Shown here one piece after another: positions 3,724 through 14,528 of a stretch of 51,502 bases of DNA. Numbering within the stretch: the first letter of the stretch is position 1; each line of letters starts with the position of its first letter. The DNA is taken from NCBI RefSeq assembly GCF_048403405.1, contig NZ_CP183133.1. One strand, 5' to 3'. Below the pieces are notes generated by a model, which was not told the origin of the DNA, ran no database searches, and saw only the letters and a list, made by a program, of their open reading frames with translations. A program made the position numbers and the translations under genes. The stretch is from Escherichia coli (GTDB lineage: Bacteria > Pseudomonadota > Gammaproteobacteria > Enterobacterales > Enterobacteriaceae).

Positions 3724-4626
3724 GTGCACGGCAAGTGAACTCCGGCCCCTGGTCAGTTCTTATCGTCGCCGGATAGCCTCGAAACAGTGCAATGCTGTCC
3801 AGAATACGCGAGACCTGAACGCCTGAAATCCCAAAGGCAACAGTGACCGTCAGGCATTCCTTTGTGAAATCATCGACGCAGGTAAGACACTTGATCCTGC
3901 GACCGGTGGAAAGTGCGTCCATGACGAAATCCATCGACCAGGTCAGATTGGGCGCCGCCGGACGGAGCAGCGGCAGACGTTCTGTTGCCAGCCCTTTACG
4001 ACGTCTTCTGCGTTTTACGCCCAGGCCACTGAGGTGATAAAGCCGGTACACGCGCTTATGATTAACATGAAGCCCTTCACGGCGCAGCAACTGCCAGATA
4101 CGACGGTAGCCAAAACGCCTGCGCTCCAGTGCCAGCTCAGTGATGCGCCCTGATAAATGCGCATCAGCAGCCGGACGGTGAGCCTCATAGCGGCAGGTCG
4201 ACAGGGATAAACCTGTAAGCCTGCAGGCACGACGTTGCGACAGACCCTTAGCCTCGCACATGACTTCCACGGCTTCCCGCTTCTGGTCTGTCGTCAGTAC
4301 TTTCGCCCAAGAGCCACCTGAAGCGCCTCTTTATCCAGCATGGCTTCGGCAAGCAGCTTCTTGAGTCTGGCGTTCTCTTCCTCAAGCGACTTCAGACGCT
4401 TAACTTCAGGCACCTCCATACCGCCATACTTCTTACGCCAGGTGTAAACGTGGCATCGGAAATGGCATGCTTGCGGCAGAGTTCACGGGCGGGTACCCCA
4501 GCTTCGGCTTCGCGGAGATATTGATGATCTGTTCGTCGGAAAAACGCTTCTTCATGGGGATGTCCTCATGTGGCTTATGAAGACATTACTAACATCGGGG
4601 TGTACTAATCAACGGGGAGCAGGTCA
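3724..4626 (-). mobile_element. IS3-family (IS407-group-like) element, left part: IRL, orfA with a 1-nt deletion, 5' portion of orfB; cut by the Tn3-family IR
   Basis: orfA-like translation MKKRFSDEQIINILREAEAG...(frameshift near TFYTWRKKY)...; orfB 5' part MEVMCEAKGLSQRRACRLTGL...TDQGPEFTC; terminal TGACCTGCTCCCC read on the minus strand at 4614-4626. Confidence 0.7.
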
Positions 4627-10068: not shown

Positions 10069-10083
10069 GGTAATGACTCCAAC

Positions 10084-10587
10084 TTACTGATAGTGTTTTA
10101 TGTTCAGATAATGCCCGATGACTTTGTCATGCAGCGCCACCGATTTTGAGAACGACAGTGACTTCCTGCCCAGCCTTGCCAGATGCTGCCTCAGATTCTG
10201 GTTATGCCGCTCAATTCGCTGCGTATATCGCTTGCTGATAACGTGCAGTTCTCCCTTCAGGCGGGATTCATAAAGCGGCCAGCCATCCGTCATCCATACC
10301 ACGACCTCAAAGGCCGACAGCAGGCCCGGAAGACGCTCCAGCGTGGCCAGAGTACGCTCACCAAAGACGCGTGCCACCACCGTCCTGCACATCCTGCCAT
10401 AGGCGTAAAATAACCAGCGCTGACGTGATTTAGCCCCGACGTAGCCCCACTGTTCGTCCATTTCCGCGCAGACAATGACGTCACTGCCCGGTTGTATGCG
10501 TGAGGTTACCGACTGCGGTCTGAGTTTTTTAAGTGACGTAAAATCGTGTTGAGGCCAACGCCCATAATGCGGGCGGTTGCCCGGCAT
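10084..10587 (-). CDS. insB: IS1 InsB
   Basis: ORF translation [64 protein letters not shown]... Confidence 0.9.
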
Positions 10588-10781
10588 CCAACGCCATTCA
10601 TGGCCATATCAATGATTTTCTGGTGCGTACCGGGCTGAGAGGCGGTGTAAGTGAACTGTAGCTGCCATGTTTTACGGCAGTGAGAGCAGAGATAGCGCTG
10701 ATGTCCGGCAGTACTTTTACCGTTACGCACCACGCCTTCAGTAGCTGAGCAGGAGGGACAACTGATGGAGATGGAAGCCAC
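10506..10781 (-). CDS. insA: IS1 InsA
   Basis: ORF translation [46 protein letters not shown]... Confidence 0.9.
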
Positions 10782-10864
10782 TGGAGCACCTCAAAGACAC
10801 CATCGTACACTAAATCAGTAAGTTGGCACCATTATCCGGCAGGCGATCTGGATTATCGTCACGC

Positions 10865-12785
10865 TGTTAAATATGTCGCGGTAGGGATACCCGTTACCGG
10901 ATACCCCCCGCACAGATCCCGGCGTGCGCGATTTACGCACCGGGCTCCTGCCTCGGGTGTCTGGCGGTGAACCGCTCCACAGGCCATGGATGAAGAACCC
11001 GAACCCTTGGTAGCCATGCGGCTGCCAGTTTGTTTGCTTTCGTCCAGGTCGTATCATCCTTCTGGCTCCTGCGCCTGAGCGCCCGGCGCCAGAGGTTTGT
11101 TACGTGTGTCCTGAACTTCTGCATGGTGGGGAAGTTGCCCGGTACCGAGTGATAGTTCAGGTATCCCTGAACCACTCTCCTGAGCCATTTTCCCTGTTCG
11201 GGGATTGAGTAATGCCAGCGCCTTCGCAGACCGTCTTTGATGGCTTTCAGAGTTGCCGTCATCCGATCCCGGCGGGTCTTTCGTATCAGCATGAACCTGC
11301 CGTTGCGATCTTTCCCGCTGATGTGCGTGAACCCGAGGAAGTTGAACGTTTCTGGTTTGCCTTTTCCCCTGATGGCACGGTTTTCGGCAGCGAAGCGGCC
11401 GAACTCCATCAGACGGGTTTTCTCCGGGTGAACCGTGAGTCCGAACTCCCTCAGTCTGCGCTGCATGGCTATACGGAAGCGCCGGGCATCGTATCGTTTG
11501 TCGAACCCGATGACGATGTCATCGGCGTATCTGACCATTACCACATTGCCTGTGGCATAGCGACGTCGCCACTGATGCGCCCACAGATCGAAGACGTAGT
11601 GGAGGTATATGTTTGCCAGCAGCGGTGAGATGACCGCACCCTGTGGGGTGCCTTCCTCCGTTGCTCGCCATTGACCCTCCTCCAACGTCCCGGCTGTGAG
11701 CCACTTACGTATGAGCCTGATTACGCTCCGGTCGCCGATCCGATGCTCTGTGAACCTGATCAGCCATTCGTGGCTCACCCTGTCGAAGAACTGACTGATG
11801 TCGGCATCCAGTACCCAGTTTACGTTAGTGCGTACCAGCCCTGTGGCCAGTGCGTCCAGTGCATCGTGCTGGCTTCGCCCGGGTCTGAACCCGTATGAGA
11901 ACCCCATAAAGTCGTTTTCATAGACTGCGTTCAGGATTTTCACCAGCGCATACTGGACGATCTTGTCCTCCAGCGAGGCGATGCCGAGCGGGCGTTGTTT
12001 TCCATCCGCTTTTGGGATGTAGTGACGCCTGCCGGGCTGCGCCCTGTAGCTGCCCTGATGTAGCCTCCGGTGCAGATCTGTTATGTTGTTCTTCATGTTT
12101 CCGGCGTAGTCCATCCACCTGATGCCATCCACTCCGGCGGCCGCTTTCCTGCTCAGGGAGAGGAATGCGGCTTCCAGTGCTTCGACTGTCAGCAGGTGGA
12201 ACAATGCTGTAAACCGTTCTTTCTTCCGCTGCTTCGCAGCTTCCCGCACGCGTGACAGCCTCTGTGACATGCTTTCCCGGCTCTGTGTCCGGCGCATGTG
12301 TGGCTGTTCCGCGTTCCCCTTGGCCCCGCTCCTTCGCTCCACTGACTCCGCTCCTTTCGGGTTGTTCGCCTGCTTCGCCGCTACTATGAGCGAGTCCGAC
12401 TTCTCCTCTCCGTACATCACCGGCTATGACTCCTCGTCTTCCCGGTGCGGGCCGTCTCCGACACTGGCAGATGGTCAGAGGGGAGATCTCCCGGTTCCCG
12501 CGTAGAGATCGTATTGACATGCCAGGGTCTCAGACCCCGCCGGGTCCATGTGGCACTCGCAGTATCGCACCCTATGATGTTGCCTTCCGTTAACAGTACA
12601 ACGTCGGCACCCGGTAATTTAATATACATTTCGTGGCTCAATGGCTGGCCTGTCAACACCCCTGTCAACGCTTCGCCCCATACCTCGCGGTATGCAACGC
12701 ATGACTCGGGGACCTTGTGGATTGCTGGTCCTTCAATGGTCGGGGACTTTCACCCCTTGATCTCTACCGGTCTCCCGGCGAACAC
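10865..12785 (-). mobile_element. Group II intron (approximate boundaries) carrying an RT/maturase ORF
   Basis: Domain-V-like hairpin GAGCCCGGTGCGTAAATCGCGCACGCCGGGATC (minus strand, plus coords 10915-10947) overlaps the RT stop; about 490 nt of structured sequence lies 5' of the RT start; exact 5'/3' ends not resolved by eye. Confidence 0.5.
10933..12297 (-). CDS. Group II intron reverse transcriptase/maturase
   Basis: ORF translation has RT motifs (…KADGKQRPLGIASLEDKIVQ…GTPQGAVISPLLANIYLH…VRYADDIVIGF…) and a maturase-like C-terminus; start placed at MRRTQSRE (the ORF track extends to 12420). Confidence 0.8.
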   Translation of the reverse strand: MRRTQSRESMSQRLSRVREAAKQRKKERFTALFHLLTVEALEAAFLSLSRKAAAGVDGIRWMDYAGNMKNNITDLHRRLHQGSYRAQPGRRHYIPKADGKQRPLGIASLEDKIVQYALVKILNAVYENDFMGFSYGFRPGRSQHDALDALATGLVRTNVNWVLDADISQFFDRVSHEWLIRFTEHRIGDRSVIRLIRKWLTAGTLEEGQWRATEEGTPQGAVISPLLANIYLHYVFDLWAHQWRRRYATGNVVMVRYADDIVIGFDKRYDARRFRIAMQRRLREFGLTVHPEKTRLMEFGRFAAENRAIRGKGKPETFNFLGFTHISGKDRNGRFMLIRKTRRDRMTATLKAIKDGLRRRWHYSIPEQGKWLRRVVQGYLNYHSVPGNFPTMQKFRTHVTNLWRRALRRRSQKDDTTWTKANKLAAAWLPRVRVLHPWPVERFTARHPRQEPGA

Positions 12786-12800
12786 TGTATGTATAACCAG
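12785..12800 (+). promoter_or_regulatory. LexA-box-like operator (CTGTATGTATAACCAG) upstream of umuD
   Basis: Matches the CTGT-N8-ACAG SOS-box pattern with one half-site mismatch; 26 bp upstream of the umuD ATG. Confidence 0.5.
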
Positions 12801-12825
12801 TAAAATTAGAGTGTCAGGAGGAAAG

Positions 12826-13257
12826 ATGAAACTACAACTTTTCAGCACCGGGAAAGAACTCCCGCCACAGGCCCATCCATTGTTTGCCGATCTGGCCAGC
12901 TGCGGTTTTCCCAGCCCTGCTGCTGACTATGTCGAGTCCGATCTGGATCTCCATGATTACTGCATACGGCATCCGAGCGCGACGTACTACCTGCGTGCCA
13001 GCGGAGACAGCATGGCCGACGGCAGTCTGTACAATGGCGATCTGCTGGTTGTGGACAGTGCTGAAAAGCCGCGGCACGGCGATATCGTTGTCGCCAGCAT
13101 GCAGGGGGAGTTTACGGTGAAACGGCTTCTGCTGACGCCGCGACTGACGCTGCAGCCCATGAATGCCTCCTGGTCGCCGATTTATCCTGATCCCGACGAG
13201 CTGGATATCTTTGGCGTCGTCACGCATATCATCCACCGCCCGAGGGAGATGTACTGA
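12826..13257 (+). CDS. umuD: UmuD (translesion polymerase V accessory subunit)
   Basis: RBS AGGAGG before ATG 12826; translation [37 protein letters not shown]...[20 protein letters not shown]... resembles UmuD. Confidence 0.9.
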
Positions 13258-14528
13258 TGTTTGCCCTGGCCGATGTGAACAGCTTCTATGCCAGCTGTGA
13301 ACGTGTTTTCCGCCCGGATTTGAAAGGAAAGCCGATAGTCGTCCTGAGCAACAACGACGGGAATGTAATCGCTCGCAGTGCCGAGGCGAAGCCCTGGATC
13401 AAAATGGGAACTCCGTGGTTTCAGATAAAAAACGAAAGATACCCGGAAAAAATATATGCGTTTTCAAGTAATTATGAACTTTACGCCTCGATATCGGCGC
13501 GCGTGATGAACTGCCTGGAGGAACTGGCCCCCAGGGTGGAACAGTATTCAATTGATGAGATGTTCCTCGACCTGACCGGCGTGGAGCACTGTATGGGGCT
13601 TGAGGACTTCGCCCGGCAGCTGCGTCAGCAGGTGTATGACTGTACCCGCCTGACCATTGGCGTGGGCGCCGGACCAACGAAAACCCTCGCAAAATCAGCC
13701 CAGTGGGCCTCAAAAGAGTGGAAACAGTTTCATGGCGTACTCGCTCTGACCAGGGGAAATCCGCAAAGGACGCGGAAACTGCTTTCACTGCAGCCGGTTG
13801 AAGAAATCTGGGGGGTGGGTAACCGTATTGCACGCAAGCTAAATGTGCTGGGCATAAAAACCGCGCTCGATCTGGCTCTGACGAACCCGGCCTTCATCCG
13901 CAAAAATTTTTCTGTCGTCCTTGAGCGAACGGTACGGGAACTGAACGGGGAAAGCTGCCTTTCGCTTGAGGAAGCCCCTCCGACGAAACAGCAAATTGTC
14001 TGCAGCCGCAGTTTTGGCGTGAAGATCACGGAGTACGAGTCACTCCGTCAGGCTATCTGTCAGCACGCAGAGCGGGCCTCTGAAAAACTGCGTAAAGAGC
14101 ACCAGTATTGCCGGCATATTTCCGTTTTCATCAAAACGTCTCCGTTCGCCATTAAAGAGCCTTACTACGGCAACGTGGCTACGGAAAAACTTCTTACACC
14201 CACTCAGGACACCAGGGACATCATTGCAGCCGCTACAACGGCTCTGGAGCGTATCTGGAGGGATGGGCACCGGTATGCCAAAGCCGGAGTTATGCTGAAT
14301 GACTTCACCGGCTCCGGAGTTTCGCAGCTGCAACTGTTCGACGAACGCCCGCCACGCCCTCACAGTGCTGAGCTGATGAGGGTTCTGGACGGGATCAACA
14401 ACTCAGGGCTGGGTAAAGTATGGTTTGCGGGGCGGGGTATGGCCCCGGAATGGCAGATGAAACGGGAGATGCTTTCTCCTGCTTATACGACACGATGGTC
14501 AGATATTCCTGCAGCGAAACTGGCGTGA
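13257..14528 (+). CDS. umuC: UmuC (error-prone DNA polymerase V catalytic subunit)
   Basis: 423-aa [44 protein letters not shown]... (Y-family polymerase); ATGA overlap with the umuD stop. Confidence 0.9.

Follow-up and report, generated by a model that had tools for sequence, protein, structure and literature searches.

A mobile group II intron at the edge of a plasmid umuDC SOS box is complementary to the box sequence

The close apposition of a group II intron and an SOS-box-like sequence upstream of umuD raises the question of whether the intron landed there by chance, whether it alters SOS control of the mutagenic polymerase, or whether the box is itself part of the intron target. The locus lies in a 51,502-nt stretch of Escherichia coli DNA (contig NZ_CP183133.1, assembly GCF_048403405.1), referred to here in its entirety as the window. 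A sequence-only reading had placed the likely 5' boundary of the intron, on the minus strand, at or next to the box, and had proposed the last two possibilities as alternatives. To address them, we determined the ends of the intron, identified the element, and compared the sites occupied by other copies.

The presence of a complete group II intron was confirmed. Rfam RF02005 (group-II-D1D4-6) matched over its full model length at 186.6 bits (E 9e-55), against a gathering score of 49. The intron-encoded ORF gave a Pfam RVT_1 match (E 2e-46) and contained an intact YADD motif, although the maturase domain itself was not detected by Pfam. No endonuclease domain was detected: Pfam found RVT_1 only, and the approximately 130 aa that follow the RT domain contain no HNH-like motif. 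The last 81 nt of the intron folded (z -3.75) into a 33-nt domain V hairpin with a 2-nt bulge and a domain VI with a bulged A 7 nt from the 3' end. The Rfam D5-D6 model (RF00029) gave no hit at E<=0.01.

To fix the ends of the intron, the junction was compared with plasmid sequences by megablast. Three kinds of match were returned: intron plus 10-29 nt of 5' exon without this umuD, umuD from window base 12784 onward without the intron, and full matches. The intron-free plasmids pBSI138_P3 and pGR-1780 read ...GCTGTTAAATAT/ACTGTATGCATAACCAGTA...ATG (slash, insertion point), while the window reads ...TTAAATAT[GTCGCGG...GGCGAAC]ACTGTATGTATAACCAG, and the joined exons are thus ...TTAAATAT/ACTGTATGCATAACCAG.... 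The insertion point is 1 nt outside the CTGT core of the box, between positions 1 and 2 of the 20-nt LexA consensus as read from umuD and between positions 19 and 20 in the orientation of the intron. The sequence-only reading was therefore right to within a base at the 5' end and 10 nt at the 3' end (10875, not 10865). The non-coding 5' part is 363 nt rather than about 490, and 25 bp rather than 26 separate the box from the umuD start codon. That reading had also named homologues with the same upstream sequence and no intron as something that would refute it. Such homologues exist, in 944 plasmid records, but they represent the empty homing site and confirm the reading. A pattern search of the window for CTGT-N8-ACAG with one mismatch allowed found only this AT-rich match to the box. 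The total number of matches was at chance level and no second convincing box was seen. The box is credited because of its position and its conservation in homologues; it departs from the palindrome at one half-site (CCAG in place of ACAG), and LexA binding to it has not been shown.

Coordinates of features at the intron-umuDC junction (window positions; strand in the second column)
Position	Strand	Feature	Basis
10875..12783	-	Complete group II intron Kl.pn.I5 (= Se.ma.I1), 1909 nt; last 5'-exon base 12784, first 3'-exon base 10874	Comparison with empty sites; Rfam match
12779..12783	-	5' splice-site pentamer GUUCG, where GUGCG is canonical (G3U change at 12781)	Every other copy examined has GUGCG
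12622..12629	-	EBS2, AUGUAUAU (intron nt 155-162), internal loop of domain I	Pairs with exon positions -12..-6 here (7 bp); covariation
12593..12597	-	EBS1, ACUGU (intron nt 187-191), hairpin loop of domain I	Pairs with exon positions -5..-1 (ACAGU); same loop complementary to the 5' exon in at least 8 other lineages with different exons
12525..12750	-	Domain I-IV core	Rfam RF02005
10933..12420	-	Intron-encoded reverse transcriptase/maturase, 495 aa	ORF; Pfam RVT_1
10915..10947	-	Domain V hairpin	Fold of the 3' end of the intron
10878..10911	-	Domain VI, bulged branch-point A at 10882	Fold of the 3' end of the intron
12784..12802		LexA operator (SOS box) of plasmid umuDC, 19 of 20 consensus positions; core CTGTATGTATAACCAG at 12785-12800; on the minus strand also IBS1 (12784-12788) plus IBS2 (12789-12795)	Full box TACTGTATGCATAACCAGTA present in the empty sites
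10839..10874	-	Remnant of the native 3' exon (ATATTTAACAGCGTGACGATAATCCAGATCGCCTGCC...)	Matches the DNA adjoining the box in the empty sites
10071..10838	-	IS1-family element (ends approximate to 1-2 nt)	InsA and InsB ORFs; annotated as IS1X3 in an identical plasmid; end sequences
12826..13257	+	umuD	NCBIfam NF007621, 144 bits; annotation in the identical plasmid
13257..14528	+	umuC (Y-family polymerase)	ORF; annotation in the identical plasmid

The element is Kl.pn.I5, also called Se.ma.I1 (PMC6764390), whose reference copy is on Klebsiella pneumoniae plasmid pK245 (PMC3522654). The pK245 copy lies at the same umuD junction, in the same ltrA-umuD-umuC-parB-parA arrangement, and 1904 of 1909 nt are identical. 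The five differences are at nt 3, 330, 999, 1059 and 1100, two of which change the RT (R232S and S246L). The window copy keeps the native 3' exon for about 37 nt before it is cut by the IS1-family element, whereas pK245 has a recombinant 3' flank. The element and this locus are therefore already known.

To assess whether the position at the box is particular to this plasmid, we examined other copies of the intron. On other plasmids it was found beside a different umuD (IncHI2), a third umuD (IncFIB(K)), and a box between hha and a recombinase-like gene, in each case directly after ...ACAGT. A genome scan with the RT and a metagenome scan with the first 19 intron bases gave 71 copies of this lineage with 57 distinct flanks, of which 54 had a full 30 nt. 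Many contigs end inside the intron, and some flanks are orthologues of one another. The consensus of the 54 flanks at -19..+2 is TACTGTATATATATACAGT/AT, which through position +1 is the E. coli LexA consensus, with information content peaking on CTG and on ATA-ACAGT. Of these flanks, 46 of 54 read CTG-N10-CAGT/ and 35 read CTGT-N8-ACAGT/. More distant relatives found by the same scans have unrelated 5' exons. Co-conversion of exon sequence as the source of the shared box was rejected, as spacers differ between sites and the empty sites already hold the box.

We next asked how the box is read. The hairpin loop at intron nt 186-192 (UACUGUU) and the EBS2 internal loop are complementary to ACAGU (-5..-1) and AUAUA(C/U)AU (-13..-6), a string that corresponds to positions 7-19 of the LexA consensus TACTGTATATATATACAGTA. 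In the window 12 of 13 positions pair on the minus strand, namely the 12 bases next to the junction (12784-12795). Across 57 distinct sites, 55 form at least 11 of 13 pairs, as compared with only 0.06% of random 13-mers from the same loci. The alternative, plus-strand target in the window has a mismatch inside IBS1 (CCAGT), which accounts for the antisense orientation.

The loop assignments are supported by covariation in an alignment of 37 lineages (numbered here with the prefix L). In L062 and L109 the loop UAGCGU faces the exon ACGCTA/, in L129 UCAGAA faces TTCTGA/, in L100 CGACAA faces TTGTCG/, in L120 GACUAG faces CTGGTC/, and in L082 CCUAA faces TTAGG/. The EBS2 of L073, AUGGAUA, faces TATCCAT. 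In L127, EBS1 (UACUGU) and EBS2 (UGUUUAU) face ATAAACA-A-ACAGTA/. L127 is only 69% identical in its RT and lies at the LexA box of an imuA gene (NF033429), one base further along.

Neighbouring ORFs were identified with NCBIfam and from record annotation. The intron was antisense to the neighbouring gene at six plasmid umuD types and a HumD-like gene, and boxes occupy the same relative place before six plasmid umuD alleles other than that of the window. It was in the sense orientation, between box and start codon, at chromosomal umuD (L052, L056 and L124), sbmC (L011), dinI (L059), a glycine-rich colicin-like ORF (L007), and prophage operons in two phage records examined. In the E. coli chromosome the arrangement is hlyE-[intron]-umuDC, with the joined exons TACTGTATATAAAAACAGT/ATAACTTCAGGCAGATTATTATG. 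NCBIfam gave no family for the colicin-like ORF, a 378-aa recombinase-like ORF (L005), a 79-aa prophage ORF (L157), or the neighbours of L058 and L073. Near-identical copies at unrelated sites differ by only 4-6 nt, showing recent movement. In addition, a published outbreak study lists two new Kl.pn.I5 insertions without comment on their location: one is 24 nt upstream of sbmC and the other is beside a chromosomal umuD (PMC8269217, Table S2).

Taken together, these results support, with high confidence, the second alternative of the sequence-only reading, that the box is part of the intron target, and extend it: the homing site of Kl.pn.I5 is the SOS box itself. A whole operator is nevertheless not required, as 8 of 54 flanks lack the distal CTG half-site (for example L065, L122, L136, L087 and L011), and the intron may simply read 12-13 bases that happen to be the box consensus. 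By analogy with other endonuclease-less introns such as RmInt1, we infer that the intron RNP reverse-splices into the strand that carries this 13-mer and is then copied by its own reverse transcriptase, probably primed at a replication fork. Because the box is a palindrome, either strand can be used. In this plasmid the umuD-distal half-site is a perfect ACAGT and the proximal one is CCAG; the intron therefore entered the minus strand, on the upstream side of the operator.

The window copy is probably a poorly splicing passenger. It is antisense to umuDC, with which we infer it is not co-transcribed, and no promoter-like site was found upstream of it in a simple scan. Its GUUCG junction occurs in 151 plasmid records, as compared with 1285 for the GUGCG junction at the same umuD site. 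Positions 3-4 of group II introns make the epsilon-epsilon' contact, so reduced splicing is likely. This copy now most likely rides passively with the IncR/IncFII(K) backbone. In contrast, sense copies would be transcribed only when LexA is cleaved and must splice for the gene to be expressed, although this coupling to the SOS response is an inference.

Other explanations appear less likely. A single chance landing next to a plasmid umuD, followed by spread with the backbone, might be suggested by the clonal and very common window junction (1285 + 151 plasmid records), the antisense orientation and the absence of an obvious promoter. However, 54 distinct flanks, several unrelated genes and both orientations share the same position in a box, the empty sites already contain the box, and two intron sub-lineages differing by about 8% (L063 and L077 versus the window) both occupy this same umuD box, which points to independent homing events. 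We regard this explanation as contradicted. Targeting by the intron-encoded protein, or through LexA bound to the operator, is also doubtful. The distal half-site at -17..-14 lies beyond the EBS2 pairing, is not explained by RNA pairing, and is conserved in 44-51 of 54 sites, and in Ll.LtrB the protein reads the distal 5' exon. On the other hand, EBS1 and EBS2 co-vary with the exon in related lineages, sites without the distal half-site are used, and real boxes are expected to be the main genomic source of the proximal 13-mer, which alone would make the distal half look conserved.

The other alternative of the sequence-only reading, that the insertion may alter SOS control, remains open. A stronger form of it, that the insertion matters mainly because it changes LexA control or umuDC promoter strength and is frequent through selection for that effect, is possible but seems unlikely. 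About 60% of plasmids with this umuDC type carry the intron (1436 occupied against 944 empty), and all DNA upstream of position 2 of the box, including any -35 element, is moved 1.9 kb away, with position 1 changing from T to C. If TAAAAT (12802-12807) is the -10 hexamer, the 17-bp-spaced -35 hexamer falls on CGAACA at 12779-12784, which was read directly from the sequence as intron sequence. However, promoter and terminator scans found no site that passed in either the occupied or the empty allele, and the 16-bp operator core and everything downstream of it are unchanged. The high frequency is equally explained by clonal spread of IncR/IncFII(K) backbones, and the same intron is found at many other genes in the opposite orientation, so the umuDC effect cannot be what defines it.

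A broader reading, offered only tentatively, is that a clade of group II introns (Kl.pn.I5 sub-lineages A and B, the L073 type and the imuA-associated L127 type) has specialised on the LexA operator as its homing site. Sense copies would make intron expression and mobility SOS-inducible and would make production of error-prone polymerases (umuDC, imuA-imuB-dnaE2) depend on splicing, whereas antisense copies would strip the operator of its upstream promoter context. The intron would then be both a stress-triggered mobile element and a modifier of SOS mutagenesis on multidrug-resistance plasmids.

SOS boxes are short, conserved across Gammaproteobacteria, and occur in tens of copies per genome and on plasmids, phages and islands. 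Such a target would explain how one intron came to be in more than 4000 sequenced plasmids and in 214 of 5426 complete E. coli genomes. The rule also makes future insertion sites predictable, identifies natural alleles in which pol V genes are separated from their promoter by a 1.9-kb ribozyme, and points to the intron copies as recombination bridges between resistance plasmids. For annotation, an 'ltrA' gene next to umuD should be read as an occupied SOS box and not as a functional partner of umuDC.

The target rule, unlike the element, appears to be new. Leclercq and Cordaux (PMC3522654) inferred a -25..+10 homing consensus from three copies and reported no free homing sites; their text does not contain the words LexA, SOS or umu. 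No paper linking group II intron targeting to LexA sites was found in full-text searches, which did not cover most subscription journals, so prior description cannot be excluded. Group II introns are known to specialise on insertion sequences, terminators and attC sites, and a repressor operator would be a new kind of target. The nearest analogues are class C introns, which target transcription terminators, and IIC-attC introns, which target integron attC sites. These are likewise specialised on a short, widespread, non-coding motif found on many replicons and mobile elements, but they recognise a DNA hairpin plus a 3-4 nt IBS1 and lack EBS2. Here the motif is read by about 13 contiguous EBS2+EBS1 base pairs and is also a repressor operator, so the insertion falls inside promoter regions. 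RmInt1 of Sinorhizobium meliloti similarly has an RT with no En domain and a target defined by EBS1/EBS2 pairing, with reverse splicing into single-stranded DNA at replication forks as the expected route, but it homes to an insertion sequence (ISRm2011-2). Finally, integron integrases, ISCR transposases and SOS-controlled prophages have their mobility functions placed under a LexA box, and sense-oriented Kl.pn.I5 copies would be in the same position, although SOS control of the intron is inference only. Those elements carry their own LexA box, whereas this intron borrows the host's box by inserting next to it.

Intron copies with hybrid flanks were also found. Plasmid pK245 (L160) joins the window-type umuD 5' flank to the 3' flank of the IncFIB(K) site, and two further records, L104 and L128, showed other combinations. 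This pattern looks like homologous recombination between intron copies that joins different plasmid backbones. Within the window, four substitutions were private to this sub-lineage, and the GUUCG junction was present in 151 plasmid records. The IS1-family element near the intron's 3' end is annotated as IS1X3 in the identical plasmid, and it removes the rest of the intergenic region that adjoins parM in the empty-site plasmids. Two other features were observed in the window: a tandem array that is open in several reading frames, and a ribosomal frameshift element that marks an IS3-family element.

Positions of additional features in the window
Position	Strand	Feature	Detail
4210-4327	-	IS1222-type ribosomal frameshift element	RF00383, 131.6 bits
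8924-9718		Tandem array of a 37-bp unit	21.5 copies at 93% identity
10071-10838		IS1-family element	inserted about 37 nt from the intron's 3' end
12781		G3U substitution	5' splice site
12454		Substitution at nt 330	
11725, 11684		Two RT changes	R232S, S246L

Published outbreak data list two de novo Kl.pn.I5 insertions that arose during a K. pneumoniae outbreak (PMC8269217 Table S2). One is 24 nt before sbmC and the other is next to a chromosomal umuD; the authors do not remark that both are SOS genes. On IncHI-type plasmids (L005, L078, L084, L112 and L114), the intron lies after the box TACTGGTTATAAAAACAGT, 27 nt upstream of a 378-aa recombinase-like ORF and divergent from hha, and that gene may be LexA-regulated. 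Sense-oriented copies were also seen in temperate phages (L164 and L165, phage records ON470622 and MK448228). These copies lie after TTGA(T/A)-N-TACTGTATATAAAAACAGT, upstream of a small conserved ORF, which in one phage is followed by a UmuD-like gene. Contigs in an Arthrobacter mobilis assembly (L007) and a Myxococcus assembly (L039) carried the enterobacterial intron at 99-100% identity, in L007 next to a colicin-like gene; these contigs are probably contaminating enterobacterial DNA.

Related introns and other box arrangements were observed as well. In two metagenome contigs, L127 and L042, a separate intron lineage (RT 69% identical) sits at the LexA box of an imuA gene in an imuA-imuB-dnaE2 mutagenesis cassette. 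It is inserted one base further, after the full 20-mer, with matching changes in EBS1 and EBS2. In L150, from a related lineage, an intron 5' end (GTGCG...) directly follows another intron's 3' end (...CTACCGCGAT), a twintron-like or tandem arrangement. The copy in L058, on a contig that ends before the downstream gene, follows two overlapping boxes (CTGTATATAAAAACAGTACTGTAAATTTATACAGT), the arrangement typical of colicin promoters.
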